Below, piece by piece: positions 21,768-50,518 of a stretch of 64,000 bases of DNA; position 1 is the first letter of the stretch, and every line of letters begins with the position of its first letter. This DNA comes from an uncultured delta proteobacterium (GTDB lineage: Bacteria; Desulfobacterota; RBG-13-43-22). The stretch spans positions 22,643 through 86,642 of the forward strand of contig CAVUPH010000028.1 of assembly GCA_963743305.1 (NCBI GenBank), given 5' to 3'. The position numbers and the translations under genes are program-made. The notes under the pieces were generated by a model. That model saw nothing but the letters and a program-made list of their open reading frames with translations, made no database searches and was not told the DNA's origin.

Positions 21768-23745
21768 TTAGGCCGCTTCCATCTCCCGACGGCTGGCCAT
21801 ATCCATCAGGACCCGTTCGCGGGTCTTGTCTATGCCCAAAGCCTTCCGCTTCTTATCGATATGGGCGATCATTAAACGGGCCATTTCGTACGGATCGGCC
21901 GTAAAGCCCCATTTGCCGAATCCCATTTCCTCCAGTCCTTCAAAAAGGAGTTTATGAAATTTGGTCTCTTCGATAATGGGGAAGGTCACCCCAAAAATCG
22001 TGTAGACCCCGGAAGCCACGAAGTACTGACCGATGGTGATGGCCTTTTCGCTCATCCATTCCGGGGCCGCTCCGGCCACCGGCAGGTCGGCCAGGCTCGT
22101 TCCCAATCCCCCTTCTCGGACCATCTCCGAACAGGCCTTGAGGATGCGGCTGTTGTCCACGCAGGACCCCAGACCCAGAACCGGGGGCATGCCCACGGTT
22201 TCACAGACTTCCCGCAACCCGGGACCGGCCATATGGGCCGCTTCGGGTCGGTACAGGCCGGCCTTGGCCAGGGCAATCTGCGAACAACCGGTTTGGACCA
22301 CCAGGACGTCGTTTTTGATTAGTTCTTTCACCAGTTCCACATGGACCCAATCCTGCTTGACCCGGGGATTGGTGCAGCCCACTACCCCGGCCACACCCCG
22401 GATCCGCCCGTTGATGATGTTATCATTGAGCGGTCGATAGGACGACCGGAAGCTGCCGCCCAGCATATAATTGATGTATTCATGGGAAAAGCCGTGGACG
22501 CCCAGGTTCTTGATCTGAGGAATTTCGATGGGCCCTTGCCGATGTCTTAAAGCGTTCAATGGCCATACGCACAATGGCATCGGTACAGCGGCGGGGCTCG
22601 TGTTCCTCGAACGCAATGTGATCGGCCCCTTCAATGTGGCAGCGGGGGTTGGTGGTAAACAGACGAGTTCCATAGCAAGCGGCCACCTTGGCCAGCCCCT
22701 GTTTGATGCACTGTACATCCACCCCCAGGGCATCCACCGCCCCGGTGACCAGAATGGCCTCGGTGGACATAAAGTTGCCGGCATGGGGGATACCGTGGCG
22801 GCAGAGCATCTCGGCCCCGGAACAGCACATGCCCACCAGGTTAAGATCCTTGGCCCCGGCGGCTTTGGCCTCCTGGATCAGGACCGGATCACTGACCGAG
22901 GCGATGATGGATTCAAAGAGGTTGGGTTCATGGCCGTGAATGATGATGTTGACCTGATCTTCCTTTAAGACGCCCATATTCACCTCGGCCACCACCGGGG
23001 TGGGAATGCCGAAGAGGATATCCGAAATTTCAGTGCCCACCATGGATCCGCCCCAGCCGTCGGCCAAGGCCGTTCGGCTGCACTGCTTGGTGATATTCTC
23101 GTAATGCTGGTCCACCCCCATGTGGGTACGGTGGAGTAATTCCATGATCTCCCGCATGGCGCCCCGGGGGACGATACCGTGCTTGCGCCAGGTCTCCAGG
23201 GTCTTGGCCGGTACCCGTTTGGCAAAGGGAATCTCGCCCTCCACCTGGCTAAAGGTGCGTGCCAGTTCGTGGTACAGGTCGGTGGCGATCTCCATCATCT
23301 CCCGTCCTTCCACCGGGATACCCAGTTCACGGGCCACTTCTTCCAGCTTCAGGGGATCCTTGATGGTGTAATCGGGAATGGTCCCTTCAATGACCCCGCG
23401 AAAAACCTCAAGCATGACCATCCCGTGGTCGGTATGGGCGGCGGCCCCGGCGGCCACCATGCGGGCGAAATTCCGGGACATGATGGTATCGATCGTGGCC
23501 CCGCAAACACCCACTTTTCCGTAGGGGTCTTTGGATGACAGCCTGCATGGCCCCATGGCGCAATGCTTGCAACAGGCCGAATCGGCCCCGATGGGGCAGG
23601 CTTTCATGGAATCGGCCCGGTGAAAAGCGGTTTCCACGCCGTCCCTCTCAGCCTTCCGCAGCATCTGGGCCGTGGCCTCACAACTGGTCACTGCCTGGAT
23701 ATTGAGGGGCTTTAATCCGGTGGGGGATTTTACTTCTTTTTCCAT
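21768..23745 (-). CDS. cooS: Anaerobic Ni-carbon monoxide dehydrogenase catalytic subunit, frameshifted near 22546
   Basis: CPIG...CCKHCAMGPC, HTDHG, HGHEP, GMCCSG, DVQC, VVGCTNP, TGCS, GSCVDNSR, PEWMSEKA; one-base removal gives ERFKHRQGPIEIP. Confidence 0.93.
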
Positions 23746-23852
23746 TTTTTCTTCCTCCTTCGTAGTTAAAACAACCGTTTACTTCGCCCTCACACCAGCC
23801 AAGCAACAACCTTGGAGATACTGAGGCCATAAATTCAACCTCTCAACTATTT

Positions 23853-23898
23853 TAATAATAGTTATTAATAATGTTAAACCATAAAAAGGAAAAGTCAA
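23853..23898 (-). promoter_or_regulatory. Putative cooS promoter with palindrome
   Basis: TTGACT-16 nt-TAACAT; TAATAA-TAG-TTATTA inverted repeat at 23853-23867. Confidence 0.45.
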
Positions 23899-24081
23899 GA
23901 GAGCGGATTACTCACTCATTGGGGGAGGGAGTCAGGGACTTGTTTTGGGCACGAGGGGGGAGGGGGGCTAACTAAAAAAAACTTGCGTCTTTGGTTTTAC
24001 CTCCGAAATTCGTATTTCGAATTTTTATTTAAGCAACTTTCCAAGGGATTCTTCCGCTCACCCGGAGCCGGTCTTCGTGGC

Positions 24082-24438
24082 TCAGGTAAAAGGAGAGGAC
24101 GGCGGAGGGCCGTCCAGGCTGGTCAAGGTGGTTAATCCGGGAGAGGGTTTTATCGCTTCCACCGGTTTGGGGGCCAGGGAATCCATGGCCCGCTGCTGAA
24201 GCAATTGGGTCTTCGTGGCCCCGACCGTCATGGCCAGGGCCAGGGTTTCCTGGATCTCCTCTTCGGTTGCGCCCAAATCCCTTGCGACCGCAAGGCAGTA
24301 AGCCGTTCAGGGCTCGCAGCCGGCCCCCAGCGAGGCCCCCAGGGCGATCAGGTGCTTCATCTTGCGGTTGATGGCCCCGTCGGCATAGGCGGTCTCAAAA
24401 AATTCCCGGTATTGGTTCAATCCGTCTTCGACCCCCAT
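24082..24438 (-). CDS. AhpD/carboxymuconolactone-decarboxylase-like selenoprotein (CxxU)
   Basis: MGVEDGLNQY...KMKHLIALGASLGAGCEP-U(TGA 24309-24307)-TAYCLAVARDLGATEEEIQETL, in frame across two ORF-track entries; SD AGGAGG; hairpin 24280-24295. Confidence 0.85.
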
Positions 24439-25200
24439 GCCTTTTCCTCCTTCACTTTTGGTTGCCCTAAACAATGTCCCTTTGGTAACCGGCGAACTGT
24501 TAAACCCGGTTTCTCCGGCCGACTCAGCCCCGTTGAACCCCGCTTCCTTCATCAAAGCCAGGAAATCCTTTCCCGGTATGGCCCCGCCCTCTCAGCGGAA
24601 CCAGCTTTCGATTCGTTCCGGAGGACTCTTGGTCAGCGCCCCGCTCAAAATCTGGTCGGCGATCAGTAGCCGGCCGTTCGGTTTCAAGACCCGGCAGGCC
24701 TCTTTCAACATGCGGCCCTTGGCAGGGATCAAATTGAACACCCCGTTGGAAATGACCACGTCGAAGCTCCCGTCGGGGAAGGGCAGGTCTTCTCCGGAAA
24801 ATTCCTGGAAAGCCACGTTGGTCAAGTCCGTCTGTTTCAGGTTTTCATAAGCCCGGACGACCATCTCCGGCGACAAATCCAGACCCACCACCTTGCCTCC
24901 GGCCCCCACCATGCGGGCGGCCACCAGGCTGTCCAACCCACCGCCGCTGCCGATGTCCAGGACCGTTTCCCCCCGGTCCACCGAACCCAGAGAGAAAGGA
25001 TTGCCCACACCGCAGAAAGAATCCAAGACACTTTCCGGCAGTGATTTCAGGATTTCCGGGTCATACCCCAAGGCCTCCAGACCGGCCCTTCCGGTTGGGT
25101 ATTTGAACAACCCCTGGGGGCTGCCGGCCACCTTGGCGTATTTTTCCCGGATACCGGCTTCGATCTTTTGTTTATCCCCCGGGGATAATACAGTTTCCAT
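24439..25200 (-). CDS. ArsM-like SAM-dependent methyltransferase, selenoprotein (reads in frame into the AhpD-like domain as assembled)
   Basis: SFCGVGNPF, VLDIGSGGGLD, FDVVISNGVFNL, then SWFR-U(TGA 24594-24592)-EGGAIPGKDFLALMKEAGF matching the ArsM WxxCxxGA...AGF segment; hairpin 24558-24576. Confidence 0.82.
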
Positions 25201-25822: not shown

Positions 25823-26329
25823 TTAATCCAGTAATACCATACTATACCAGGCCGGCAACAGTTTTCCCTCCTTATCAAACGCTATTTTGAAACCCAACGG
25901 CTCGATAGTTTTGCCGATATCCATCCCGTAGGCGTCCATGGACGGCCGGGCCAGGTGCGGAAAATTGCAGGGACTGGGGAAGGCACATTCTTCGCACTGG
26001 ACGCAAAGGACCAGTGCCAGGGCATAACTACAGTTGTAGGAAAGCATGGCCTCTTTTTCCACGGCCAGGGCAACGTTCTGTCCTCCTTTTGGCTCTGTAG
26101 TCTGGATGACCAGGCCCCAACGATAGCGTTCGAAAGCCTCCTTGAACAGATCCTGAGGGATGCTCATATTGGGTGGACAGGTCCAGAACTTCCCCCAGCG
26201 ACTGCAGCCGAACCGACATTTGAGAAAAGAGCGGGGATCGAAAACCACTTGACTGGTTTCCAAAAGCTTCGCTTTGGCTGCTCCCAGTTCAATGGCCTTC
26301 GTTTCTAAGGGTTCAAAATAGGTTCTCAT
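25823..26329 (-). CDS. DUF2284-type predicted metal-binding protein
   Basis: KCRFGCSRWGKFWTCPP...CVQCEEC...CNFPHLARPSMDAYGMD. Confidence 0.82.
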   Translation of the reverse strand: MRTYFEPLETKAIELGAAKAKLLETSQVVFDPRSFLKCRFGCSRWGKFWTCPPNMSIPQDLFKEAFERYRWGLVIQTTEPKGGQNVALAVEKEAMLSYNCSYALALVLCVQCEECAFPSPCNFPHLARPSMDAYGMDIGKTIEPLGFKIAFDKEGKLLPAWYSMVLLD

Positions 26330-26431: not shown

Positions 26432-27274
26432 TTAAAGTCGATCCAGGGGCTTTTCCCCGCAGGTACAGACGATCCGCGGGCGGTCCAGCAGTCGCTGAAA
26501 TACCCCTCGGAAAAGCATGGCCGCGGCCAGTCCGCCCAATAGGGGCCCCAGTATATAGACGGTAATAAAACCGCCGCGAGGTCCCGGAATCGCAACCGAC
26601 CCCCAGCCCGCCAGGTAAGCTACCAGCCGTGGGCCGAAGTCCCGGGCGGGATTCAGACCGGCCTGGGTCAGGGGCGCCAGCAGAGAGATAATCCCCATGA
26701 CGGTCAGGCCGATGAATACAGGTGCGATATCGCTGGAGGGACGGCCGACATTGCAGTCTTCGGTTAAGAAAAAGATGATGGTCACCAGGAGAAAAGTCCC
26801 GAGGGCCTCGATCAGGACGGCCATCGGCTTCGAAACGATCGTAATGGCCGCCGGGGCCGAGGGGTTGGGGAAATATTCCCCGAACAGGGAAGCGCTCCTG
26901 ACCGATTCCGCGGACCCGCGAATGATCCGGTGGAAGGTTTCATACCCGATGATGGAATCCCCGAAAATAAGCAGCAGGACCCACCCGGCAATAAAAGCCC
27001 CGAGAAACTGGGCGGCCAGATAGGCAGGCAGTTTCCTCGGCTCCATGCGTCCGGCAATAACCATAGCTACACTGACCGCGGGATTCAGGTGGGCGCAGGA
27101 AAGGTGCCGGCTGGCGTAAATGGCCAAGGTGACCCCGATGCCCCAAATCCCGGCCACCTGGAATAAGCCGTTGTGAGCGGAGAAAAGGGTGTCCGAGGCC
27201 ACCACCCCGCAGCCGAAAAACACCAGGATAAAGGTGCCCAGCAGTTCGCCGACGAAATTGGTGGTTAAACCCAA
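26432..27274 (-). CDS. MIP family aquaglyceroporin
   Basis: AHLNPAVS and GLNPARDFGPR NPA boxes (D after second NPA = GlpF type); C-terminal CTC. Confidence 0.93.
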   Translation of the reverse strand: MGLTTNFVGELLGTFILVFFGCGVVASDTLFSAHNGLFQVAGIWGIGVTLAIYASRHLSCAHLNPAVSVAMVIAGRMEPRKLPAYLAAQFLGAFIAGWVLLLIFGDSIIGYETFHRIIRGSAESVRSASLFGEYFPNPSAPAAITIVSKPMAVLIEALGTFLLVTIIFFLTEDCNVGRPSSDIAPVFIGLTVMGIISLLAPLTQAGLNPARDFGPRLVAYLAGWGSVAIPGPRGGFITVYILGPLLGGLAAAMLFRGVFQRLLDRPRIVCTCGEKPLDRL

Positions 27275-27343: not shown

Positions 27344-28369
27344 TTAACCGGCCATGGGGTCCCGCTGCGACTCCTCGGTAAAGTCGGGATTGTTCGCGGC
27401 GACGGCGGCCAGTTGGGGCATCACCTCCGGAGGGCCGATAAATACCACCCGGTTGAGCAGGTTGATCCTTTCCGGAGGCAAAGCGGTTTCCTCCAAAGTC
27501 CACCGCCCCATGACCCAACTGAATAAATAGATCCTGATTCCATCTTCACTGATAAACCCCTTGGATCGGACCAGGGTCTTGGGAAAACGGCCGACCAGAG
27601 TCTTGAAGCCTTCCAAATCTCCCCCCTTCCAGGCATAAATGGCTGAGAGCAGACGGTCGGGCGGGGTGATTTCCCGGTTGGGATCGGCCAGCATCCGCTC
27701 AATGGCTGCTTCCAGTTCCCGGGAGGTCAGGTAACGCGCCCGGGTCCCTTCTCCTATCTGGGCCGCCGGATCCAAGCCTTTAAAGAAAAATTCCTGAAAA
27801 GGGAACTCGGCGAAAGTGGTTTCGAAAAATACCGGCGCCGGATGATGACGGGCGACCAAATCCTTCACCTGTTGGACCTGCGCGACGGTGGCCAGATCCA
27901 CTTTGTTGATTATAAAAACCGTCGAAGAAGCAATCTGTTTCTCCACCGATGAAAATACCTCGTATTCCTCTTCAAAATGGGCGGCGTCGATTACACAGAA
28001 CTGCTCGGCCAGGTTGAAACGGTTATTGAAAAAGGGAAGGGTTAAATCCCGTTTCAGGTCCGTGGGGTTGGCCACCCCGGTGGATTCGATCAGCAGTACG
28101 TCCGGCTGAGTATCTTTGGCGATCTTTTGAAGCCCTTTGATGAAATCCGTCTTCACACAAACACAGAAAATGGATCCTTTGCTGATTTCCAGGAGGTCAA
28201 TGTCTTCATCCTGAACCAGTGTACCGTCCACATCCAGTTCGCCGAATTCATTCATCAGGATCATCAGTTTTTTATCCCGGGGAAAATCCTTAATGATCCG
28301 GTTCAGAAAGGTGGTTTTCCCGCTGCCTAAAAACCCGGTGATCAAGAATACGTTAGTTCGGTCGCCCAT
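27344..28369 (-). CDS. CobW/COG0523 metallochaperone GTPase
   Basis: TGFLGSGKTT, NEFGE, GSIFCVC, IESTGVANP, NKVD. Confidence 0.92.
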   Translation of the reverse strand: MGDRTNVFLITGFLGSGKTTFLNRIIKDFPRDKKLMILMNEFGELDVDGTLVQDEDIDLLEISKGSIFCVCVKTDFIKGLQKIAKDTQPDVLLIESTGVANPTDLKRDLTLPFFNNRFNLAEQFCVIDAAHFEEEYEVFSSVEKQIASSTVFIINKVDLATVAQVQQVKDLVARHHPAPVFFETTFAEFPFQEFFFKGLDPAAQIGEGTRARYLTSRELEAAIERMLADPNREITPPDRLLSAIYAWKGGDLEGFKTLVGRFPKTLVRSKGFISEDGIRIYLFSWVMGRWTLEETALPPERINLLNRVVFIGPPEVMPQLAAVAANNPDFTEESQRDPMAG

Positions 28370-28408: not shown

Positions 28409-28663
28409 TTATTGAATAAACCCTTTGGCTCGCAATTTATCCAGAATCTGATCCGGGTTGAGCAGCATGCCGGTGGAAAGAACCTGGCCGTCGCAGACCA
28501 GGCCGGGAGTGGCAAAGACCCCCATTTTCATAAAGTAGTCAATATCCTTCATTTTAACCACTTCGGCCTGGTCCCGTATTCCGGCTTTGTCCAGGGCCTT
28601 GAGGACGTTTTCATAGAGTGTTTCGCAATTTTTACACCCGGGTCCGAGAACTTCAATACGCAT
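28409..28663 (-). CDS. MTH895/ArsE-type small redox-active disulfide protein (CKNC)
   Basis: IEVLGPGCKNC...GVFATPGLVCDG. Confidence 0.88.
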   Translation of the reverse strand: MRIEVLGPGCKNCETLYENVLKALDKAGIRDQAEVVKMKDIDYFMKMGVFATPGLVCDGQVLSTGMLLNPDQILDKLRAKGFIQ

Positions 28664-28679: not shown

Positions 28680-29009
28680 CTAGGGGTCTAGTAAGTTGCC
28701 AGTCAGGGGGATATTGTCATCCTCTTCCATCTGCTCTAAAGGGGTTACCGATCTCTGCTCCTTATCCATAACCAAAAGAACCTCACAGAACTTGCAGACC
28801 ACCAGGTCCCCTTCCCGCCCAAATTGCTCCCAGAGTTTTCGGTAATCCTCCGGACAAGGTTCCAGATCCTCGGGTTTCTCCAGAGAGTTAATCCGATCCG
28901 ATTTGCCGCAGTAGGGACAGCGGATCCCGAAGAGGGCCAAGTCCCGCTTTGGAAGCCCCAGATTCCTGATCAGGTTGCGAAAGTGTTCTATCTGTTCCCA
29001 ATTCGTCAT
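28680..29009 (-). CDS. Small Zn-ribbon-like hypothetical protein
   Basis: CPYCGK...CKFC; start at ATG 29009 after GGAG. Confidence 0.7.
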   Translation of the reverse strand: MTNWEQIEHFRNLIRNLGLPKRDLALFGIRCPYCGKSDRINSLEKPEDLEPCPEDYRKLWEQFGREGDLVVCKFCEVLLVMDKEQRSVTPLEQMEEDDNIPLTGNLLDP

Positions 29010-29035
29010 GGCTCCATCCTCGCTTCGAAATTCCT

Positions 29036-30016
29036 CTAACAGCATTTGTAGAGCCGCAGCAGCCGTTCATTCATCACAAAATAGAATTTCATGAAGGAGG
29101 ATCCGTCCATCCGGGTTCTAACCCCGTGCAGGGTATTGGCCAGGGCAATGGTGCTGCGAAGATGGGTAACCATGATCAAATGCTTTTTGGACGCCAATTC
29201 CTTCAGCAGGGCCTGCATGGATTTATGGTTCAGATAATCCAGGGCGGGTTCCACCTCATCCAGCAGGTAAAAAGGGCTTTGCAGGCGCTCGAACAGGGCC
29301 AATTTCAAGGCCAAACTGGTAATGGCCTTTTCACCCCCGGAAAGTTGATGGCCCCTTCGGACCAGCCTACCCTTGACGGCTACCTCTACCTCCAGGCCCT
29401 TTCCCTTTTTCCCGTTGACGATCAGCAGGTGGCCCTCCCCCTCCGGGAATAAATAGTGGAGGTACCTTTGAAACAAAGGATCGGTTTCACTCATTAGTTC
29501 TTGGGAAAGCGAGTCCGTCGACTTCTTTCCATTAAGGCTCTGGATCCAGCGAAGGCGGTCCGCCGGCAGCAGGGCCAGGAGATCGTTGATCTGCTCCTGT
29601 CGGATGATGGTCTTGATAGTGTCGGCCAATCCCAGTGCCTTGAGTTTCTTCCGGTAGGTTGCCGGGCTGACCGTCTCATCCTGGACCTGCCAGGTTTCTT
29701 GACCATCTCGGGTCACCGTTCGGGCCAGTCGGATTTCCGAAGAATTTTTCTCCGGACTTTCTTTAAAAACCAGTTCCGCCCGAACCCGGGAGGCCGGAGG
29801 GTAGGCCTTATTGCCGGCGAAAAAAAGCTCCTCGCGCTCCAGTAAACGGAGCTTGACCAAGTCATTTTCTCCCAAGGTCCAGACAATTGCATCCAGGATA
29901 TTGGACTTGCCTACCCCGTTGTTCCCGATGATCACCCCGATGCCTGGTTGGAAGCTCATCGCCGTGGGTTCGGAAAAGGACTTGAAGCCTTCAATGGTTA
30001 CGTCTTCCAGATGCAT
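29036..30016 (-). CDS. Mini-SMC: SMC-type ABC ATPase head almost without coiled coil or hinge
   Basis: IEGFKSF, GNNGVGKSNILDAI, IIRQEQI, LSGGEKA, YLLDEVEPALD, MVTH in only 326 aa; ends KCC. Confidence 0.85.
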   Translation of the reverse strand: MHLEDVTIEGFKSFSEPTAMSFQPGIGVIIGNNGVGKSNILDAIVWTLGENDLVKLRLLEREELFFAGNKAYPPASRVRAELVFKESPEKNSSEIRLARTVTRDGQETWQVQDETVSPATYRKKLKALGLADTIKTIIRQEQINDLLALLPADRLRWIQSLNGKKSTDSLSQELMSETDPLFQRYLHYLFPEGEGHLLIVNGKKGKGLEVEVAVKGRLVRRGHQLSGGEKAITSLALKLALFERLQSPFYLLDEVEPALDYLNHKSMQALLKELASKKHLIMVTHLRSTIALANTLHGVRTRMDGSSFMKFYFVMNERLLRLYKCC

Positions 30017-30313: not shown

Positions 30314-30318
30314 GGTTT

Positions 30319-33540: not shown

Positions 33541-33580
33541 CCCGGGACCCAATCATATGCCTTTAACTACCGATCTTGGC

Positions 33581-40923: not shown

Positions 40924-42885
40924 TTAGACGCTCAGAGTCACCACCCGGTAGCAGCGCAGGCAGCGTTCCGCCTCGGCAACCGCCGCTGCGGGGGAATAAC
41001 CCTGTTCCACTTCCATGAAATTCCGGTTCCGTTCCTCCGGGAGCAGCTTCGTCAGCGGGATCCGCTCCTGTTTTTCGGGTACTCGGACCTCCTCCTGCGG
41101 ATCATAGACCCGAATGGTCTTAAAAAGGCTGTCAAAAAGATCATCCTGATCCGGCTCCAACGGCAGACCATTGATCAGGCGGTCAATACTCTCTGCGGCC
41201 TTTTTTCCGTTGGCCGCCGCCTCGATAACCGATCGGGGTCCGTTGACCGCGTCCCCCCCGGCAAAGATGTTCGGATCATCGGTCTGCAGGGTATACGGGT
41301 TTACCTTGACCGTTCCCCAGTCGGAGAGGGTGCATTGGCAATCGGGCCCCAGGCAGGCCCAGTCGGATTCCTGTCCCAAGGCCGGGATTACCCCATCGAC
41401 TTCCAGGATAAATTCCGACCCGGCCACCGGGACCGGACGTCTGCGGCCGGAGGCATCCGGTTCACCCAGGGTCATCTGCAGACATTCCACCGCCGTTACT
41501 TTCCCCTGCACCCCGATGAGGCGTTGGGGGTTCACCAGGGTCTGGAGCTCAATGCCCTCCGCCAGACAGTCGGCGATCTCTTCAGCGTGGGCCGGCATCT
41601 CCTCCCGGCCTCGGCGGTATAGGATCAAGACCTTTTCGACCCCTAGACGTTTGGCCGTTCGGACGGCATCGATGGCCACGTTGCCGCCGCCAATCACAGC
41701 CACCCGCTTTCCCAGCTTGATCGATTTACCCAGTTTGACATCCCGCAGGAAATCCACCCCGGGATACACCCCCTCGAGGTCTTCTCCTTCAATGCCCAAC
41801 GTCTTGCATTCCTGGGCCCCGATGGAAAGAAAGAAGGCCTGGAAGCCTTCTTCCCGGAGTCGTCCGATGGTGTTTTCGGAGCCAATACTCATCCCCGACC
41901 GGAGTTCCACTCCCAGGTCGATAATGGATTTAATCTCCCCTTCGCGTACCAGGGACGGCAAACGATAGTCCGGGATGCCCAGAGCCAGCATGCCGCCGTT
42001 TAAGGTCTGTTTTTCAATAATGGTGACCCGATGCCCCTTCAAGGCCAGATGGTAGGCACAGGTCAGACCCGCCGGACCGGCCCCGATAACCGCTACTTTC
42101 CCGGTGTTGGCCGAAGGCCTAACCTGAACTTCCGGCCATTGGTTTTTGGCCGCCGCCTGGTCGGCGGCAAACCGTTTCAGAGACCGGATGGCAATGGGTT
42201 GATCCGCATTGGCCCGCCGGCAGTTTTCCTCGCAGGGGTGATAGCAAACCCGTCCCACGATGCCCGGCAGGGGCAATCGTTCCCGGATCACGGCCAGGGA
42301 ATCGTCAAATTTGGCATTTTTTATCGCTTCCACGTACTTGGGTACATCCAGATGGATCGGGCAGGCATCCATGCAGGGAGCGTTAACCTTGGACAAATAG
42401 CTGCCGGACGGGCCGCCTGATCCCCCCTGGTTTTTCTTCTTCAATTCGTCCAGAAAATAGCGGGCCAGATGCAGGGCCGGGTTCGGGCCCATCTTGCCGA
42501 TGTTGCATTTCGAGGATTCGATGACGGCCTTCCCGGAATTTTCAAAAAATTCGAGGTCCTCGTCGGTAGCCTCCCCGTGGTAAACATCTTTCAGGACATC
42601 GAGCATCTCAGCATAACCGGTTGTACAATAATTGCATTTGTTGCAAGCGCTGGAAACCTTATGTACCTCCTCGAGGTAGGCCTTGACCAAGTCAACGACA
42701 TCCACCTCCGGGTCGCGGATCAGGATGCCGTCCCATCCGGCCAGTGCTCTGATTCTTTGGCCGGGTCTAAAGAATTCGGGCAGTTCGGCCTTTTCCACGG
42801 CTTCAAAAGACGCGGCCTCCCGACCACGATTGTCTACCACCTGTCCCCCCCAGGAACTGAATATGATATCCCTCATAACCTCCAT
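40924..42885 (-). CDS. FeS-flavoprotein, GltD/NfnB-like NAD(P)H oxidoreductase with NuoF-like N-terminal 4Fe-4S domain
   Basis: SACNKCNYC...SKCNIG, APCMDACP, GRVCYHPCEENC, GAGPAG, GGGNVAID, YRR, FAGGD, EAERCLRC. Confidence 0.88.
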   Translation of the reverse strand: MEVMRDIIFSSWGGQVVDNRGREAASFEAVEKAELPEFFRPGQRIRALAGWDGILIRDPEVDVVDLVKAYLEEVHKVSSACNKCNYCTTGYAEMLDVLKDVYHGEATDEDLEFFENSGKAVIESSKCNIGKMGPNPALHLARYFLDELKKKNQGGSGGPSGSYLSKVNAPCMDACPIHLDVPKYVEAIKNAKFDDSLAVIRERLPLPGIVGRVCYHPCEENCRRANADQPIAIRSLKRFAADQAAAKNQWPEVQVRPSANTGKVAVIGAGPAGLTCAYHLALKGHRVTIIEKQTLNGGMLALGIPDYRLPSLVREGEIKSIIDLGVELRSGMSIGSENTIGRLREEGFQAFFLSIGAQECKTLGIEGEDLEGVYPGVDFLRDVKLGKSIKLGKRVAVIGGGNVAIDAVRTAKRLGVEKVLILYRRGREEMPAHAEEIADCLAEGIELQTLVNPQRLIGVQGKVTAVECLQMTLGEPDASGRRRPVPVAGSEFILEVDGVIPALGQESDWACLGPDCQCTLSDWGTVKVNPYTLQTDDPNIFAGGDAVNGPRSVIEAAANGKKAAESIDRLINGLPLEPDQDDLFDSLFKTIRVYDPQEEVRVPEKQERIPLTKLLPEERNRNFMEVEQGYSPAAAVAEAERCLRCYRVVTLSV

Positions 42886-42959: not shown

Positions 42960-43949
42960 CTATCGTTCGACCTTTTTCAAGGCCGCCGCCTTATCCCAAC
43001 TGACGCTCAACTGATTGGCAAAATCGGGCCACAGTTTGAGCAACGGGTGATTGGGATCCGGAGGCAACTTCTTGGTTTCATCAAAAACGGTGGTGGCCAG
43101 AAAGGCGTCGGCCAGGGCCACGGCGGGCATTACCCGGGCGGCGCCGGCCATGGGACCCGTAAAGATCAGGTCGTTATAAAAGAAGGCCCCCAAAGACTCC
43201 ACGGCCGCGTCAATGCCGGCCCAGGCCTTGAAATCCCCCTTTTCCCGATACTTCTTCAGTTCCATATAAGAACCATTGCTGGGGGCACTGGCTCCCAGAT
43301 AACCCCACTTTTCTTTAATGAGTTTATTGGCCAAACCACACATGGCTGTGGCCGGGGCGTTCAAGACCGAAGTGTCAATAATGATGGTTTCGAATTTGGC
43401 CCCCACTTTTTCGATAGCGTCCAGCAGTTTCTGGGCTCCGGTAATGCGCCCGGTCGGCATCTGGTCCGCCATGTCAAAAGCCACCAGCAGGACATGTTTC
43501 ACCCCAATCCGGGCAATCTCCTTGATCTCGGTTTCAATGTTTTCTTCCCAGACGGTCAGGCTGTTGTAAAACATGCGGTCCAGCAGTCCTTTTTCGGCGC
43601 AATACGCCGCCCCGTCGATCTTGGTTTGCATGGTTATGGAGTCGATACAAAAAGGCATTTTGCTGTTAGCCACAACGAAATCGATGAATTTATTGAATTT
43701 TTCACCAGGGCTGGCCACGATGTCCGCCATGGCGGGAACACCCAACTCGGCGGTGTACCGGTCACATGTTTTTAACAGCTCGGCCGCTCGCTGTTCATTG
43801 AACCCCTTCCGCCGAGCCCCTTTATCAAAAATTTTATCGCTTTCCTGAAATATGGAAAAACAACAGACCGTGGGATAATCTCCCGGCTGTCCGCCGAAAG
43901 TCACCCCGCCGACAGTTGCGACCTTTTGCTCCTTAGCGAATCTGAACAT
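42960..43949 (-). CDS. MtrH/MtgA-like methylcorrinoid:tetrahydrofolate methyltransferase
   Basis: MFRFAKEQKV...FGGQPGDYPT, PFCIDS, FYNSL, IIDT, GASAPSN. Confidence 0.85.
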   Translation of the reverse strand: MFRFAKEQKVATVGGVTFGGQPGDYPTVCCFSIFQESDKIFDKGARRKGFNEQRAAELLKTCDRYTAELGVPAMADIVASPGEKFNKFIDFVVANSKMPFCIDSITMQTKIDGAAYCAEKGLLDRMFYNSLTVWEENIETEIKEIARIGVKHVLLVAFDMADQMPTGRITGAQKLLDAIEKVGAKFETIIIDTSVLNAPATAMCGLANKLIKEKWGYLGASAPSNGSYMELKKYREKGDFKAWAGIDAAVESLGAFFYNDLIFTGPMAGAARVMPAVALADAFLATTVFDETKKLPPDPNHPLLKLWPDFANQLSVSWDKAAALKKVER

Positions 43950-44027
43950 AAAACCCCCTTTTAATAAAAAGATCTAGGGGGGGGACGGCCCCCTGAGCGC
44001 CTATCCCCCCATCCCAGCTAAACGATT

Positions 44028-44417: not shown

Positions 44418-44440
44418 TTTCGCCTCCTTCGGCCCTATCC

Positions 44441-45815: not shown

Positions 45816-46478
45816 CTAACGGTCGGGCTCCACCAAACCTAAGGAAACTCCCAAATGGATTAACTGGGCCGTGCTGGTCACCTCCAGCTTTTCCATGATA
45901 TTACGGCGGTGGGTTTTCACGGTACTCAAGCTGACACAAAGCAAGCCGGAAATGGTCTTGGTAGGGTACCCTTCGGCAATCATCTGGAAGATCTCCCGCT
46001 CCCGGTTGGAGAGCTGGTTGAACCGTTCCTCCTTAGGGGAGCTTTTCCGCAAGGAAAGGTAACTGTCCACCAGGACTTTGGAGATGGAGGGGCTGAGAGA
46101 GGTCTCCCCCTTCATGGCCGCCTGAATAGCCTTGATAATATCCCGGCCACTCGATTCCTTCAACAAATAGCCGGATATTCCGGCCTCGAGCAACTCATGA
46201 ATATAGTGTTCATGGGAATACATGGAAAGGATCAGGATCTTGATTTTCGGAAGGTTCTTCCGGATCCTCCGGGCGGCCTCAATGCCGTTTAAAAGCGGCA
46301 TGGCAATATCCATGACCACTACATCCGGCAGGAGGGCCATGGCCTTCTCGATGGCCATCCGCCCGTCATAGGCCTCGCCGACCACCTTGAAATCCGGCTG
46401 GTCTTCCAGCAGGCGGGCCAACCCCTGCCTGACGATGGTGTGATCGTCGACGATCAGGATCCTAATGGGCGATTCCAT
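45816..46478 (-). CDS. NarL/FixJ-family response regulator (REC + LuxR HTH)
   Basis: ILIVDDH, DVVVMDIAMP, GYLLK, LSNREREI...TVKTHRRNIMEKL. Confidence 0.95.
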   Translation of the reverse strand: MESPIRILIVDDHTIVRQGLARLLEDQPDFKVVGEAYDGRMAIEKAMALLPDVVVMDIAMPLLNGIEAARRIRKNLPKIKILILSMYSHEHYIHELLEAGISGYLLKESSGRDIIKAIQAAMKGETSLSPSISKVLVDSYLSLRKSSPKEERFNQLSNREREIFQMIAEGYPTKTISGLLCVSLSTVKTHRRNIMEKLEVTSTAQLIHLGVSLGLVEPDR

Positions 46479-48700
46479 GGGACTCCGGCAAGGGAATTTC
46501 TATGCGAATCCGGGTCCCCTCACCCGGTCGGCTTTTAATCTGAAAATTGCCTTCCAGTAAAGAAGTCCGTTCCCGCATACCCAGCAGGCCCAGGCTCCGC
46601 TTGCTTTTTCCGCTGATCTGGCCATCAAACCCAATCCCATCATCTTCGGCCAAAAAAATGATCTTCGGGTAGCTTTTAATGATGGAAAGTTGAAAATTCT
46701 TGGCCTGCCCGTGGTTTAAGGTGTTGGTCAGGGCCTCCTGGCTGAAACGGTAAAGCACGGTTTCCAGGTCCGGGTCCAAGCGGCGATCAAAACCGACCAT
46801 GCGGAAGTCGATATTCAATTTGGAATGAACGGCCACTTCTTTTAAGTAGAGGTCCAGTGCCGGTCTTAACCCCAGGTCGCTCAACAGGGTCGGATGCAGC
46901 CGATACGAAAGCCGCCGGATCTCCGAAGAAGTCCGGACCAGCATTTTACGAATCTCGGAAATCTCATTTTTTAATTTTCCGTTTTCTTCCGGGGCGGCCT
47001 CCTCCAGCCGATCCAGACCCAGTTTGACCGCCGTCAGGGCCTGACCGGCTTCGTCGTGAAGCTCTCGGGCGATGCGACGGCGTTCTTCTTCCTGGCTTTG
47101 GAACAGTTTTTCCGTCAGCCGGCGCAGTTCCTGGCGGTGTCGGCGGATGGTCTTCATTAACTGAATATTTTCCAACCCGCCTCCCAGAAAATTGCATAAG
47201 GAGCCCAAAAGATGGCTTTCCGGGGGGCTGAGTTCCCTGCCCCGGGGCAGATACAGTCCAAAAAAGCCCTGGCTCTCCCCTTTGGCCGTAATCAGAAAAC
47301 AGGACAGCCAGGGTACTTTTTCGCCGCTTTCCGCTGGATACGTGGCCTGAAAAGTCGGAAAGGCCGGTTTCGGGGTCAGCTTGACCGTGCTCTCCAGAAG
47401 GCTTTGTTTCAACAACTCATCTTTAAAATGCACGCCAATAGAAAAATTCGGATCTTGGGGGGGCAGCCCCTGGCGATTCTGAAGCAGGAATCTTTTCTTT
47501 TCCCGGTCGATAAAAAAAACCCCCCCTTTTTTCAGCCGCAGCGCCCGGAGAATACTGGTGAGGGTCTCATCGAGGATTCGGTTCAAGTCCATAGTCTTAT
47601 TCAGGATCACGGCGGTTTTATTGAGAAGGAAGAGTTCCATGTTGCGTTTACGTAAGGCTTCCTCCGCCTTTTTACGCTGGGTGATGTCCTTGATGATCCC
47701 CTCGAATTCCACGTCCCCCGAGTCGGAATTGATATAACGACGGCTGGAGATCAGCACATGCATAGGAGATCCGTCCTGTTTTTTGAAGTCGATTTCGAAA
47801 TCCTTGACATTACCGTATTGGTTGATCAACTGCAGGAACTTTTCCCGATCTTCCACCCGACGGTATAACCCTCTGGCCGATCCCAGCGACAATAAAGCCC
47901 TTTTGTCGGGATAGCCCAACATCTCGACCCCGGCCTGGTTGACATCCTTGATGGTGCCTTCCAGATTGGTGACATAGATCATATCATGGGAGCCTTCAAA
48001 GATACGGCGGTATTTCTTTTCCCGTTGGACGATCTCCTCCTGTAGGCGCTTCTGTTCGGTAATATCCTTGAAGATTTCAATCCCCCCGGTGATCTGTCCT
48101 TCGTCATCCAAAAACACCGAAGTGGAGCAGATGATGGGGACTTTCTTTCCCTCGATGTTGGTGATAGTGTATTCCCGGTTGTTGATATTGGTTCCCATCT
48201 TTACCGCCTGTTTCAAAGCGCAGTCCACTTCGCAAATATGGTTCTTAAAAACATCCTTGCAGTACATGCCTAAGGCGTCGTAGGCTGAGAACCCGGTGAT
48301 TTCCTCCGCCGCCGGGTTGAAGTAAGTGATGCGAAATTCTCGGTCGGTGGTGAACAACCCATCGGGAATCCGGTTCAGAATTTCTATAAAGCTGCCTTCC
48401 TTCTGGTAAATCTGTTCAATGGCCTTGACATTGTAGAGCCTGAGCTGTTCCGCAAAGAAAACATTCCAACCCTGGGGATGCTGTTCGCCTCGCTTCAAGA
48501 AATAGGGACAGGTCAGACAGTGGGCTAATTTTTCAAAATAATCTTCCCCGGTTGAACCGGAGCATTGGGTGTGGGGGACGAGCCAACAAACGGTCTGTTT
48601 TTTGGCGAAAGCCGGACAGAGGACCTTGTTGCAGGATAAAAATTCCCAGCAGCCGGCAGCTTGAACGGGCAGGAGACTAACGATTCCCTTGGTCGTTTTT
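46462..48700 (-). CDS. Sensor histidine kinase: Cys/Trp-rich domain, 2 PAS, GAF-like, HisKA_3, HATPase (likely continuous with upstream V4R ORF)
   Basis: CWEFLSC...CPAF...CWLV...CLTCPYF; FNPAAEEITG; EERRRIARELHDEAGQAL; EDDGIGF; GLLGMRER; no convincing own start codon. Confidence 0.88.
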
Positions 48701-49288
48701 TTGGGCCAAGAACTCACAGTAGGGATCCCCCATGGCGCGGCAACCGACTTCCCGGGCCTGGAAGCAGAAACAGCCGTCCGGATAGTCTTCGCCATACAGC
48801 AGGTCCATGAAAGCGGCGGCCACTCCCTGAAGCATATAGCATTTCCCGGTTTTGGATTGGCCGTAATCTTGAAGATACCCGGTGGCTTCATAAGAATCCC
48901 GGACCTGAAGGCGCAAAGACTGTCCGGGCTCGATGGCCATAACCTCCAGGGCACCCCAGCCGAAGGCCTCGGCCATGGCCGTAAAACCCAGGATCTGATC
49001 TTCCGGCTTCTCGATCATCGGCTGCACCAGTTGCTGCCATTCCCAGGAATTTCGGATTCCATGAAAGGTGGCGTAGCCACATTCCTGGGCCGCCGCGATC
49101 AGCAGGGCGGCCGGTTCCGGGCCCCGATCTTCTCCCAGTCGTTTTTCAAATTCAAAGGATAGGCGATTGTAATAGCGGACAAAAAAAAGGGAGAGGTACA
49201 CTCCAAAAATGGGGATTATCCCCTTGGACTCCCGAATCCGGCTTCCTTCCATCACCGCCTGAATTATTTTATAGCCGTCGATAGGCAA
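48677..49288 (-). CDS. V4R-domain protein (probable N-terminus of the kinase)
   Basis: FGWGAL, DSYEA, CYMLQGVAAA, EVGCRAMGDPYCEF. Confidence 0.8.
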   Translation of the reverse strand: MPIDGYKIIQAVMEGSRIRESKGIIPIFGVYLSLFFVRYYNRLSFEFEKRLGEDRGPEPAALLIAAAQECGYATFHGIRNSWEWQQLVQPMIEKPEDQILGFTAMAEAFGWGALEVMAIEPGQSLRLQVRDSYEATGYLQDYGQSKTGKCYMLQGVAAAFMDLLYGEDYPDGCFCFQAREVGCRAMGDPYCEFLAQKNDQGNR

Positions 49289-49327
49289 TTATTGGATAAC
49301 CTCGCCAAGGGACCTTTGGCTAGTCCG

Positions 49328-49852
49328 TCATGATTTCTTCCGGACCACAAAAAGACATTGGGGATGGCCCATTATTTTACAAGCCTCCTCCTCCACCTGG
49401 TAATGACCCAGGGAACGGTTGTAGATCATGGCCATAACCCCGGCGATCCAGCCCCGGGTAAAGTGACAGCCCGGGTGCTCGCGGCGGCCGTGCTTGGCCA
49501 GCCAGCCGATAACGTGATGGCTGGAGATCCCGATAATCCGTCCCCCCCTACTGCTCATCTTTTGAAAATGGATAATGCCCAACCCGCAATTCTGGTACAG
49601 GGTGGCCATAAGTTCCAACTTGGATTTGATCGTCCGTATCCGATCGAACTGTTTGAGCATAGCCTGGAACCCATGGAAGGCGGCTTCTTCGGCAGACTGA
49701 ACAATTAAATCAATCCCCTCCTGCCCCATATGGTCTTCCAACATCTTGTGCAGGTTGATGTTGTAGTGGTGGCAATGCATGGCGATGTGCAGCCCGGAAA
49801 GGGTAATCCGGGATCCATCGCGGGCCAGTTCGTTTCGCCAGTCTATGATCAT
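49328..49852 (-). CDS. Stand-alone V4R-domain protein
   Basis: HCHHYN, CGLG, CHFTRGWIAG, EEACKIMGHPQCLF. Confidence 0.8.
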   Translation of the reverse strand: MIIDWRNELARDGSRITLSGLHIAMHCHHYNINLHKMLEDHMGQEGIDLIVQSAEEAAFHGFQAMLKQFDRIRTIKSKLELMATLYQNCGLGIIHFQKMSSRGGRIIGISSHHVIGWLAKHGRREHPGCHFTRGWIAGVMAMIYNRSLGHYQVEEEACKIMGHPQCLFVVRKKS

Positions 49853-49978
49853 TGGGTTTATTTCGTTGGTTGGATTTATTTCGTTTATTTCGTTGGATTG
49901 GGTTATCCGGGTCTAAAAAAGAGCCATCCACCCGCGGAACCAAACAAACCAAATCAACGAAAAAAACGAGATTCTCGT

Positions 49979-50518
49979 TTACCGCTCGGCGCTGATCCTC
50001 CCGGGAACGCCCTTATCATAATAGTGTTTGATCATCCGCATTTCGGTGACCAGGTCGGCTTTATCTATGATTTCCGGCGGGGCATACCGGCCGGTGAGGA
50101 TTAATTCCATGCCGGCGGGTTTAGCTTCCATAAGTTTGAGGACCTCCTCCAACGGAATCAACCCGTAGGCGGTGGCGATATTGATTTCATCCAGGATCAG
50201 AATATCGCAGACCTGGTAGCGGATCACCTGCCAGGCCTTATCCAAAGCTTTTTGCGCCAATTCCCGATCTTTGAATCCGGGATTGGCCAGGTTGGCAAAA
50301 CCGGCCCGGCCCATGGGTTTGATGGTCAGCAGAGGCCCCAACTTTTTGGCCGAAGCAATCTCTCCGGTCTTCTGCGGCCCTCCCTTCAAAAATTGGATCA
50401 TGTAGACCTTGCGCCCGTGGCCGACCGCCCGCATGGCCAGCCCCAGGGCGGCCGTGGTCTTCCCTTTGCCTTCGCCGGTATAGACCTGAATCATGCCCCT
50501 GACAGTAGTCTCAGCCAT
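49979..50518 (-). CDS. cobO: ATP:cob(I)alamin adenosyltransferase (CobO/BtuR)
   Basis: VYTGEGKGKTTAALG, IQFLKG, LDEI, LILTGR, ADLVTEM...KHYY. Confidence 0.92.
   Translation of the reverse strand: MAETTVRGMIQVYTGEGKGKTTAALGLAMRAVGHGRKVYMIQFLKGGPQKTGEIASAKKLGPLLTIKPMGRAGFANLANPGFKDRELAQKALDKAWQVIRYQVCDILILDEINIATAYGLIPLEEVLKLMEAKPAGMELILTGRYAPPEIIDKADLVTEMRMIKHYYDKGVPGRISAER

Follow-up and report, generated by a model that had tools for sequence, protein, structure and literature searches.

The described systems closest to the locus analyzed here are clusters of corrinoid (B12)-dependent methyltransferase genes. Among published concepts, the nearest is the type 1 mlp gene cluster (PMC10418091), for which involvement in the metabolism of methyl-sulfur and methyl-selenium compounds was proposed, and in whose description the sdm dimethylselenide genes of Methanococcus voltae are cited (Kountz & Balskus 2023, PMC10418091). 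By definition a cluster is not of this type if a tetrahydrofolate (THF) methylase is encoded within 20 kb, and the study left out any sequence that had internal stops (PMC10418091). Other relatives are the mec cassette and the cmu and cdm systems. We analyzed a stretch of 64,000 nucleotides, here called the window (GenBank assembly GCA_963743305.1, contig CAVUPH010000028.1, positions 22,643 to 86,642), from an uncultured delta proteobacterium whose metagenome-assembled genome (MAG) measures 4.9 Mb and is 90% complete. A gene cluster at 21768..50518 of the window encodes UROD1, an MtaA-like methyltransferase of the uroporphyrinogen decarboxylase (URO-D) family with a predicted selenocysteine (Sec), together with p139, a small protein of thioredoxin (Trx) fold. 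The system has relatives in both the type 1 mlp clusters and the mec cassette; what is new is the selenoenzyme-redoxin pair.

As in type 1 mlp clusters, UROD1, a second URO-D methyltransferase (UROD2), a corrinoid protein and a RACo-type activase are encoded on one strand (36801-45475). The mlp enzymes have a His-Cys-Cys zinc site, with exceptions allowed among Mlps1 (PMC10418091); UROD2 has this site, and UROD1 has Phe-Cys-Sec. Unlike mlp clusters, the locus has an MtrH-type THF methyltransferase gene within it (42960-43949), a Sec-containing Mlp-like enzyme devoid of the His, and a set made up of p139, CobW and further redoxins. The text of the mlp paper mentions neither CobW nor MtrH, and thioredoxin appears there only in the title of a reference (PMC10418091). 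The exclusions on THF methylases and internal stops mean that the present variant would have been filtered out of that study. According to the parts of their descriptions available to us, the mec cassette and the cmu and cdm systems share with the locus a kinase and a regulator, methyltransferases of the URO-D type, a THF methyltransferase (MtrH-type or other), a corrinoid protein and RACo. The PocR sensor kinase and MecJ-type antiporter of the mec cassette were not found in Pfam scans of the cluster, whose kinase has PAS, GAF and HisKA_3 domains. In the same comparison by description, both URO-D proteins of the window resemble MtaA more than the group of first methyltransferases (MT1), and nothing in those systems corresponds to the Sec, Trx and CobW parts.

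A literature search, with Haft & Tolstoy 2025 outside its scope, found no Sec-containing MtaA-like enzyme, no Trx-fold partner or fusion of such an enzyme, no linkage to CobW, and no alternation of MtrH with MtmB or MttB. The original prediction for this DNA, made from the letters alone, knew of no description of the combination, without claiming its novelty as verified. In part it is described: the mlp and mec systems, and the HUIPC and ArsM/AhpD selenoprotein families also represented in the window, are already in print or in NCBIfam.

UROD1 is an MtaA-like protein with a conserved in-frame TGA codon

The best match of UROD1 in the PDB is MtaA (4AY7, E 5e-25), and no other solved chain matches at E <= 0.001. 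The site motifs of UROD1 are FFICGD and APGU: the zinc-ligand His of MtaA is replaced by Phe and one ligand Cys by Sec, the TGA codon aligning with the second zinc-ligand Cys of MtaA ('APGC'). Scores against the equivalog models all lie below their cut-offs (MtaA 102, cut-off 400; MtbA 86, cut-off 600; TIGR01463 134 bits, cut-off 235). A search for relatives matched 139 stretches of genomic contigs, of which 123 encode relatives, and we examined the best 80. At the Sec position the codon is TGA in 78 of these and TGC in two. FFICGD is invariant among the 80 relatives, and the reading frame is conserved for about 32 codons past the TGA. Two cultured strains, Desulfocicer vacuolatum DSM 3385 and Desulfospira joergensenii DSM 10085, carry UROD1.

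The source genome carries a tRNA-Sec and SelB above the cut-off (363 bits versus 242), and decoding of the TGA as Sec by this genome is plausible. Starting 11 nt past the TGA, the sequence can form a hairpin whose apical loop contains GGU; its folding energy, calculated from the window sequence alone, is unremarkable (z = -1.19). With Rfam models run at E <= 0.1 over the full 64,000 nucleotides, neither a SECIS family nor a riboswitch was found, and the one match, to a small RNA, was sub-threshold. In RefSeq and other databases UROD1 is cut at the Sec codon and appears as a protein of 311 aa, under the name 'MtaA/CmuA family methyltransferase' or 'uroporphyrinogen decarboxylase family protein'. 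A Sec-containing URO-D protein is named by no model of NCBIfam release 20, including those that UROD1 matches. The available parts of the text and table of a 2026 review of prokaryotic selenoproteins (PMC13188914) have no entry for MtaA, UroD, uroporphyrinogen or CmuA, and the main text of the BSepDB paper has no relevant term. In the predicted structure of UROD1 the C-terminal 60 residues are of low confidence, because the rows of the underlying alignment end before the Sec codon.

A library-wide phmmer search with UROD1 gave 1670 relatives at E <= 0.001. Among the best 150 of these, UROD1 orthologues are at least 60% identical to the query and the next tier is 31-39% identical. In the 83 listed representatives of at least 300 aa, nearly all of those nearest to UROD1 have F/L-x-C-G in place of H-x-C-G. 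We built a quick maximum-likelihood tree with a midpoint root from 84 rows, namely 82 representatives of 300-560 aa and the two window proteins, the remaining 68 representatives falling outside on account of their length. A group of 40 rows, 39 of them with the His and including UROD2, is split from a group of 44 rows with a support of 99. Within the latter, a subgroup of 31 rows (support 91) contains UROD1 and all 19 His-less rows.

UROD2 is 23.5% identical to UROD1. It too matches only MtaA among solved chains at E <= 0.001 (4AY7, E 4e-31), and it scores below the cut-offs of the same models (MtaA 157, cut-off 400; MtbA 114, cut-off 600; TIGR01463 159 bits, cut-off 235). Its canonical H-I-C-G and P-G-C motifs are kept in 38/38 orthologues. 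A second UROD2-like gene, 67% identical, stands beside a UROD2 orthologue of 94-95% identity at two places (G174:C53, about 27993-29107, and L012:14753-15867); the window has one copy.

These matches bear on two alternatives in which a URO-D protein would serve as MT1. One is dehalogenation of halomethanes of the mec, cmu or cdm type, in which the MT1 would take the methyl or chloromethyl group and MtrH would pass it to THF. Sensors of the V4R and PocR types bind small hydrophobic ligands, and PocR regulators flank the fused sister enzymes described below, both of which speak for this idea. So does the match in parts to the mec cassette, as far as the available portion of its description goes (a kinase, a regulator, methyltransferases of the MtaA/CmuA type, MtrH, a corrinoid protein and RACo; bioRxiv 10.1101/2021.08.30.458270). 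However, the PocR kinase and the antiporter are missing from the cluster, and the Sec and Trx parts would go unexplained. Moreover, CdmB, MecC/E, CmuA and the O-demethylases are MT1 enzymes of the UroD superfamily, CdmB being zinc-independent (PMC13222342, in the part available), whereas both URO-D proteins here match MtaA alone among solved chains. We regard halomethane dehalogenation as quite improbable. The second alternative, to which we give very little credence, is an O-demethylase for methoxylated aromatics with UROD2 or UROD1 as MT1, MtrH as the second methyltransferase (MT2) and V4R proteins that would sense phenolics. V4R domains do occur in aromatic-sensing regulators. The Mto system, in the part of its description available, likewise joins an MtrH-like protein (MtoA) to a corrinoid protein and an activase (PMC8630106). 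Enzymes of this kind, however, swap the Cys ligands for carboxylates or non-ligands, and it is the S-type that retains His-Cys-Cys (PMC10418091), the site found in every UROD2 orthologue; here too the Sec and Trx parts would be left over.

p139 is a conserved partner of UROD1

For the analysis of gene neighborhoods we used those of the 80 loci that were long enough for each question: the flank downstream of UROD1 reaches 3.5 kb or more in 58, the upstream flank 7.5 kb or more in 46, and both flanks measure 7.5 kb or more in 32. Presence of a gene was scored by tblastn with gene-specific identity thresholds. p139 lies downstream of UROD1 in 58/58 loci. The p139 family comprises 1821 clusters, all named hypothetical, and the best 120 of the 1821 are 83-95% identical. 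In 28 orthologues the CxxC motif and much of the N-terminal half are invariant. The predicted model (pLDDT 71.8) has a Trx-type fold with two extra helices; a fold search with it returned nothing at E <= 0.001, the weak matches being thioredoxins, ArsD and MTH895, and an Atlas feature search, which called p139 glutaredoxin/Trx-like, agrees with these. With 31.5 bits against the HUIPC model NF047660 (cut-off 105), p139 is not a member of that family.

The two proteins also occur as natural fusions. Among the 83 full-length representatives, four end in a p139-like CxxC domain with the motif D-S-x-x-C-x-x-C-x-Y-M, and a fifth has a Cys-less version; the four all belong to the His-less group, and the quick tree places UROD1 with them. 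A metagenome scan for fused URO-D-Trx enzymes matched at least 599 stretches, at least 554 of which encode relatives, and among the best 80 most matches are near full length. We tabulated the 31 of these 80 metagenome loci that are at least 9 kb long. Adjacent to the fused enzyme are a corrinoid protein in 24 loci, CobW in 22, RACo in 11 and MttB in four; MtrH was beside it in none of the 31.

The complex of UROD1 and p139 was predicted with a natural Cys-form pair from one of the loci (L077). The median ipSAE of three runs was 0.75, compared to 0.00 for the best of three controls. For comparison, 58 of 80 solved complexes attained a score of 0.75, as did two of 110 mismatched pairs, counts that are rough since our own alignments were used. 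The runs share at least 93% of contacts, and the pLDDT of the partner protein is at least 82. The predicted interface involves residues 196-202, 233-238 and 312-315 of UROD1 and residues 15-19 (with Cys17), 21-23 and 60-63 of p139. The prediction supports a placement of the active face of p139 on the Cys233/Sec312 site, and we read the modeled contact surface of p139, which includes the CxxC and the cis-Pro loop, as the face by which a Trx canonically binds its substrate. We know of no comparable complex.

The UROD1-p139 unit has a conserved neighborhood and a patchy distribution

Downstream of UROD1 and p139, a second CobW GTPase (CobW2) is present in 53/58 loci an MTH895-type Trx in 44/58, p121 in 27/58, HUIPC-type paralogues in 22/58 and the SMC-like ATPase in 7/58. 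Upstream, DUF6951 is found in 32/46 loci, the corrinoid protein, RACo and UROD2 in 29/46 each, the response regulator in 27/46 and a distant DUF2284 paralogue in 26/46. MtrH is upstream in 22/46 and on either side in 24/46, and the GltD-like flavoprotein on either side in 5/46. Anywhere in the locus, MIP occurs in 7/32, and the TSCPD and GcvH-like proteins in 3/32 each. ArsM-AhpD, DGC and cooS were each detected in 0/32. The conserved accessory genes are those for p139, CobW2, the MTH895-type Trx, p121 and the HUIPC-type redoxins.

A genome of the same genus (G174) keeps the whole arrangement of the window, including ArsM-AhpD and cooS. In a genome of another family (G070) the genes are reordered, as cobO, V4R, V4R, histidine kinase, response regulator, MtrH, GltD, UROD2, corrinoid protein, RACo, DUF6951, DUF2284, CobW, UROD1, p139, p109, HUIPC, SMC, p121, Trx and CobW2; a second genome of that family (G106) has a matching part of this order. 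Neither of these two has ArsM, DGC, GcvH, TSCPD or MIP. Recurrence of this gene set in other families, in changed order, shows that the clustering is not due to chance.

The conserved CobW gene raises the possibility that p139 and CobW2 form a metallochaperone/GTPase pair (compare HypA/HypB and UreE/UreG) that would insert or repair a metal at the Cys/Sec site of UROD1. The setting would be sulfidic, zinc-poor habitats, with the other redoxins, DUF2284 and cobO serving cofactor loading, and the idea is compatible with the other readings. G3E GTPases work with small chaperones. CobW follows UROD1-p139 and the fused enzymes at the frequencies given above (53/58 and 22/31), the p139 CxxC is predicted to touch ligand residues 233-238 and 312, and DUF2284, RACo and cobO recur nearby. 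A permanent fusion of chaperone and client would be unusual, however, and the predicted contact surface is the one with which a Trx meets its substrates. We find a maturation role somewhat unlikely.

UROD1 was found in 9/401 sampled genomes of the phylum and in 3/13 other genomes of the window's family. The proteins are 65-96% identical across named records from Desulfobacterales, Desulfarculaceae, Syntrophobacteraceae and SAR324. This high identity across lineages, together with the patchy distribution, suggests horizontal spread of the system. MtrH is present in 10/21 genomes of the family. In a genome of the same genus that has no UROD1 (G317), an MtrH homologue of 64% identity lies inside a 1029-aa frame (G317:C14:27606-28550), which suggests a fusion with the neighboring gene.

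The distribution bears on a further alternative, a split, corrinoid-dependent methionine synthase, in which the pterin, B12, homocysteine and reactivation modules would be MtrH, the corrinoid protein, a URO-D protein and RACo, respectively. These parts parallel the modules of MetH, and the source genome has no match to PF02574 (the homocysteine domain of MetH) or PF01717 (MetE). However, PF02574 was also found in 0/13 other genomes of the family, and PF01717 is absent or marginal (21-23 bits) in 10/10 genomes tested. MtrH is in only 10 of 21 genomes of the family and UROD1 in 9 of 401 of the phylum sample, and control by a sensor kinase suggests an inducible trait. We rejected the idea, which is extremely improbable, because relatives negative for UROD1 also have no clear PF02574 or PF01717 match and MtrH is in just 10/21 family genomes. 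Separately, an 882-aa frame (G000:C14:398810-400444) that matches both URO-D and Pterin_bind may encode an unusual fused methionine-synthase-like enzyme.

UROD1 and its fused relatives also occur beside methylamine-type methyltransferases

A second context was found in 9/80 loci and in a complete genome (G269). Here a GntR regulator, a corrinoid protein and an uninterrupted MtmB-family gene precede UROD1, p139 and CobW2, and an MttB-family gene often follows CobW2. The corrinoid protein of these loci is about 33% identical to that of the window, and one of the loci (L068) belongs to Desulfocicer vacuolatum DSM 3385. Often in such loci (L063, L075 and others like them; L077:1784-2521), in clusters that have no RACo, proteins of about 245 aa with a weak likeness to PF02965 (Met_synt_B12, the activation domain of MetH; E about 1e-9) are encoded between the MtmB gene and UROD1; they may provide S-adenosylmethionine-dependent reactivation of the corrinoid protein. 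Among the fused enzymes, one metagenome contig has a dimethylamine methyltransferase gene (PF09505; L138:4747-6135, plus strand) split by an in-frame stop into 346 and 108 aa, adjoining a corrinoid protein and the fused URO-D-Trx enzyme. The stop is as expected for a pyrrolysine (Pyl) codon of this type of MtbB. Other fused-enzyme loci have PocR-AraC regulators, DUF2284 and RACo. The original prediction did not foresee a Sec enzyme beside MtmB or MttB in loci that have no MtrH.

From the MtmB, MttB and MtbB contexts with their corrinoid proteins, the His-less, Trx-partnered clade repeatedly occupies the place that MtbA or MtaA has in operons of methanogens. In the methylamine and methanol systems of methanogens, MtbA serves where, in the nine loci, UROD1 stands by the MtmB-family gene and corrinoid protein, often with MttB. 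The fold and the best structural match of UROD1 are those of MtaA, and the fused sister stands beside a Pyl-type MtbB. Unlike MtaA and MtbA, UROD1 has no His ligand, has Sec for one Cys and a Trx-fold partner, and scores far under the equivalog cut-offs. The bacterial hosts are not expected to make coenzyme M (CoM).

These contexts favor a reading in which UROD1-p139 would be a CoM-independent counterpart of MtbA/MtaA that unloads methyl-Co(III) corrinoid proteins onto a soft nucleophile. The corrinoid protein would be loaded by enzymes of the MtmB, MtbB or MttB types, or from methyl-THF by MtrH, and the methyl group would go to sulfide or selenide, with methanethiol or methylselenides as products, to some other small thiol, or to one of the Cys residues of p139. 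Such a methyl sink fits the MtmB, MtbB and MttB contexts better than the demethylating direction does, since next to MtmB, MttB or Pyl-type MtbB with their corrinoid protein no URO-D-type enzyme other than UROD1 or its fused sister is encoded. With the window MtrH as query, five genomes were searched: three MtmB-type genomes and a SAR324 MAG gave no homologue, and in the fifth, Desulfospira joergensenii, a homologue lies about 70 kb away. The predicted docking places Cys17 of p139 where MtaA binds CoM, and ClMlp2 catalyzes transfer from methylcobalamin to selenide (PMC10418091). On the other side, sulfate reducers with the Wood-Ljungdahl pathway gain energy by oxidizing methyl groups, so that dumping them would be wasteful, and a docked p139 would obstruct access of the corrinoid protein. 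The MtmB-type genomes each have three or four pterin-binding proteins elsewhere. MtqA is far from the MT1 genes in E. limosum (PMC8604678, in the part available), and because MT2 genes can be remote in this way, a missing MT2 neighbor proves little. On balance we consider the methyl sink doubtful.

A tentative model for the window's system

In the reading that we favor, though only tentatively, the system encoded in the window would take the methyl group from methylated sulfur or selenium compounds and pass it to THF for oxidation by the Wood-Ljungdahl pathway. The gene content is read most coherently with a methyl compound of a soft atom (S/Se) as the substrate, and the candidates would be methanethiol, dimethylsulfide, methylthio-acids and methylselenides. 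The original prediction had already proposed a soft-atom methyl compound; its sulfur and selenium side is consistent with the MtaA affinity of UROD1 and with the proposal for related clusters (PMC10418091), and its arsenical framing did not hold up. The soft-atom idea now rests on the UROD1-p139-CobW unit and not on the ars-like genes.

RACo-type proteins reduce Co(II) to Co(I) at the expense of ATP, and MtaA-type enzymes move a methyl group between Co and a thiol. On this basis we view the locus as a probably horizontally mobile, corrinoid-dependent methyl-transfer system of sulfate-reducing Desulfobacterota, with two putative modules under a V4R/kinase/LuxR sensor set. Module A, the THF-linked one, would comprise MtrH, UROD2, the corrinoid protein, RACo, DUF6951 and the GltD-like reductase, MtrH exchanging the methyl group between the corrinoid protein and THF. 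Outside methanogens, MtrH-type proteins do move methyl groups between corrinoid proteins and THF or tetrahydromethanopterin (PMC8630106, in the part available). The window protein matches the MtgA model over its full length (NF047990, 157 bits, cut-off 550) and scores 236 bits against NF002142 (cut-off 287). Module B would consist of UROD1 with its obligate p139, docked on Cys233/Sec312, and the CobW GTPase, often with redoxins of the HUIPC and MTH895 types. UROD1 with p139 would take the thiol or selenol end of the transfer, as MtaA and MtbA do with CoM. The Cys/Sec pair would stand in for the His-Cys-Cys zinc site, and p139 would act as dithiol reductant, acceptor or metal donor for this pair. 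Since p139 in the predicted complex covers the face needed for docking of the corrinoid protein, the two probably alternate on UROD1 in ping-pong fashion. Related Mlp clusters are tied to methyl-S/Se metabolism, and ClMlp2 methylates selenide (PMC10418091).

Several points weigh against the demethylation reading. We infer its substrate, direction and activity from the genes and their contexts. The MtmB and MttB contexts suggest that UROD1 takes a methyl group from the corrinoid protein, in the manner of an MT2, instead of donating one. No MtrH lies within 10 kb in 22/46 loci and none was found in 31/31 sister-clade loci, so that the link to THF is not intrinsic to the UROD1 unit. A thioether product would be a thermodynamically poor route to THF, and a role in selenium salvage sits badly with an enzyme that itself requires Sec. 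Because the His ligand is missing, MtaA-like zinc chemistry may not apply to UROD1. Finally, the patchy distribution (9/401) marks the trait as accessory.

The locus offers a testable candidate both for the genes by which sulfate reducers degrade methanethiol, dimethylsulfide and methylated selenium compounds and for what replaces MtbA or MtaA and CoM in bacteria with MtmB, MtbB or MttB. This candidate is an MtaA-like selenoprotein that, paired with a Trx-like protein, is widespread. With it, selenoproteins would gain a further family, many annotations would be corrected, and the mlp and mec corrinoid systems would be extended by a redox-coupled variant. A bolder claim, and one that we think clearly unlikely, is that UROD1 and p139 are a new class of selenoenzyme, a CoM-independent bacterial methylcobamide:thiol methyltransferase in which the Cys/Sec pair and a dithiol protein replace zinc and CoM. 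One possible chemistry under this claim is that methanethiol or methylselenol would be caught as a mixed selenenylsulfide, making the S or Se a good leaving group for attack by Co(I). If true, it would provide missing enzymology of anaerobic methanethiol, dimethylsulfide and methylselenide turnover in sulfate reducers, and a general methyl outlet for their methylamine-type systems.

Layout of the locus and accessory genes

Pfam and NCBIfam scans and direct translation place every gene of the cluster on the minus strand (Table 1), with beta-oxidation genes at one end and ABC/FtsX and regulator genes at the other.

Table 1. Genes of the cluster, in order from the upstream end, with coordinates in the window
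Feature	Coordinates	Strand	Family matches and remarks
cobO, ATP:corrinoid adenosyltransferase	49979..50518	-	PF02572 204 bits; heads the cluster in G070 and G174 too
V4R-domain protein a	49328..49852	-	PF02830 32.6 bits; upstream also in G070 and G174
V4R-domain protein b	48677..49288	-	PF02830 29 bits, just below the cut-off of 31; 59-75% identical copies upstream in several loci
Sensor histidine kinase	46462..48954	-	2 PAS, GAF, HisKA_3, HATPase (Pfam); Cys-rich N-terminal region; start codon uncertain, overlaps V4R gene
LuxR-type response regulator	45816..46478	-	PF00072, PF00196
UROD1, MtaA-like URO-D methyltransferase, predicted selenoprotein, 344 aa	44441..45475	-	PF01208 159 bits; Sec312 = TGA 44540-44542
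p139, Trx-fold CxxC (CAAC) protein, 129 aa	44028..44417	-	no Pfam family; start set from orthologues
MtrH-family methylcorrinoid:pterin (THF) methyltransferase	42960..43949	-	PF02007 134 bits
GltD-like NAD(P)H Fe-S flavoprotein	40924..42885	-	PF07992, PF14691, PF10589
UROD2, MtaA-like methyltransferase, His-Cys-Cys site (LHICGS, WPGC)	39765..40889	-	PF01208 160 bits
Corrinoid (B12-binding) protein	39034..39702	-	PF02310, PF02607; TIGR02370 207.5 bits, cut-off 215
RACo-type ATP-dependent reductive activase of corrinoid proteins	36801..38861	-	PF14574, PF17651, PF17650, PF00111
DUF6951 Cys-rich protein	36335..36679	-	PF22263 98 bits
CobW1, G3E-family GTPase	34978..35931	-	PF02492, PF07683
Two DGC-domain proteins	34356-34928 and 33581-34156	-	PF08859 24.6 and 41.2 bits
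GcvH-like protein	33088..33552	-	PF01597 39 bits; NF045810 70.8 bits, cut-off 150
p109, HUIPC-family Trx-like protein, Cys form (CLPC)	32621..32950	-	NF047660 73 bits, under cut-off
HUIPC-motif Trx-like selenoprotein	32264..32560	-	NF047660 143.5 bits, cut-off 105; Sec = TGA 32516-32518
Thioredoxin_3 protein (CSRC)	31978..32292	-	PF13192 39.8 bits
TSCPD-domain protein with C-terminal extension	30999..31976	-	PF12637; TIGR03905 61.4 bits, cut-off 67.7
QULAC HUIPC-like selenoprotein, 96 aa	30731..31021	-	read-through translation; Sec = TGA 30971-30973
Trx-fold protein (CPGC)	30038..30583	-	PF13192 20.7 bits; TIGR00411 29 bits; N-terminus uncertain
Head-only SMC/ABC-type ATPase ('mini-SMC')	29036..30016	-	PF02463 156 bits
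p121, two CxxC pairs	28680..29045	-	no family in Pfam/NCBIfam scans
MTH895/ArsE-type Trx-like protein (CKNC)	28409..28663	-	TIGR00412 74.6 bits, cut-off 62
CobW2, G3E GTPase travelling with UROD1 and p139	27344..28369	-	PF02492 142 bits
MIP-family channel	26432..27274	-	PF00230 136 bits
DUF2284 metal-binding protein	25823..26329	-	PF10050 99 bits
HUIPC-like Trx-fold protein (CLLC), 109 aa	25308..25637	-	NF047660 59.7 bits, under cut-off
Fused ArsM/AhpD multi-Sec protein	24025..25200	-	NF041537 599 bits, cut-off 510; gene end uncertain
cooS (CO dehydrogenase), frameshifted	21768..23745	-	PF03063 on two overlapping frames

Much of the original prediction is borne out by these assignments. The co-oriented cluster of named families is there as described, Pfam confirms the upstream V4R two-component system and cobO, and the families agree with a set of corrinoid methyltransferases, corrinoid protein and activase with an MtrH-type link to THF. 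The prediction had also seen no MtaB, MttB or MtvB-type MT1, and the scanned open reading frames of the window gave no Pfam or NCBIfam match to MtaB, MttB, MtmB or MtvB families. Its count of eight more Trx-fold proteins was too high: there are seven besides p139, two of them selenoproteins. Of the synteny that it proposed to search for, p139 is found in 58/58 loci and the module of MtrH (24/46), the corrinoid protein, RACo and UROD2 (29/46 each) in about half, as against MIP in 7/32, ArsM in 0/32 and the mini-SMC in 7/58.

Among the redoxins, the HUIPC protein at 32264-32560 has TGA in 18/20 homologues and passes NF047660 with a UxxC motif. The QULAC protein has TGA in 23/23 homologues, and its gene is under-called, as 74 instead of 96 aa. 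Weaker relatives of HUIPC in the window are p139, p109, the QULAC protein and the 109-aa protein. ArsM and AhpD, predicted as separate Sec-containing genes, have the families and the Sec as stated and form a single fused frame, with Sec codons TGA 24592-24594 and 24307-24309 in the motifs WFRUEGG (UxxG) and CEPU (CxxU). The HUIPC (NF047660) and ArsM/AhpD (NF041537) selenoprotein families are attributed to Haft & Tolstoy 2025 in the part of a review available to us (PMC13188914), and one window protein passes each model. Both are single-family descriptions, and no URO-D/MtaA selenoprotein is included with them in the available text and table (PMC13188914).

The ars-like genes bear on the metalloid side of the original prediction, by which the MIP channel would admit methylarsenicals or further methylated metalloids, Cys/Sec redoxins would hold them, and the corrinoid protein would serve to methylate or demethylate them. 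The fused ArsM/AhpD selenoprotein, the channel, the MTH895/ArsE-type Trx and DUF2284 are all in the window, ArsM-DUF2284 fusion families exist in NCBIfam, and a Cys/Sec pair with a dithiol partner would be expected to bind trivalent metalloids. However, ArsM-AhpD and DGC were found in 0/32 related loci and MIP in 7/32, the arrangement being retained only within the genus. The prediction had itself named accessory genes not conserved with the core as a sign against it; by this sign ArsM-AhpD, DGC, cooS, the GcvH-like and TSCPD proteins and MIP are outside the conserved system, and the ArsM/AhpD fusion is probably specific to the lineage. In an ars operon, ArsR, ArsB/Acr3 or ArsC would stand beside ArsM; the cluster proteins gave no Pfam or NCBIfam match to any of the three. 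We regard a metalloid substrate as highly unlikely.

At the downstream end, cooS consists in this assembly of overlapping frames of 432 and 369 aa, and is a single intact frame of 665 aa in the same-genus genome G174. The two regions are 92% identical with three gap openings in the alignment, and the broken gene is either a pseudogene or an assembly error.

Among the RNA libraries compared with the stretch, X20 alone matched, over a small share of it. At a likeness of at least 85%, 180 X20 contigs of relatives touch 29/30 bins. Because these contigs come from other organisms and the library may contain DNA, X20 does not establish transcription or operon structure. The DNA run X1 covers 26/30 bins, the near-identical pieces listed being up to about 330 bases long.

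The sensor kinase has an N-terminal region of about 170 residues that is Cys-rich, with several C-x(n)-C groups and a CxxC before the PAS domains, and matches no Pfam family. This region may be a metal-, Fe-S- or redox-sensing domain.

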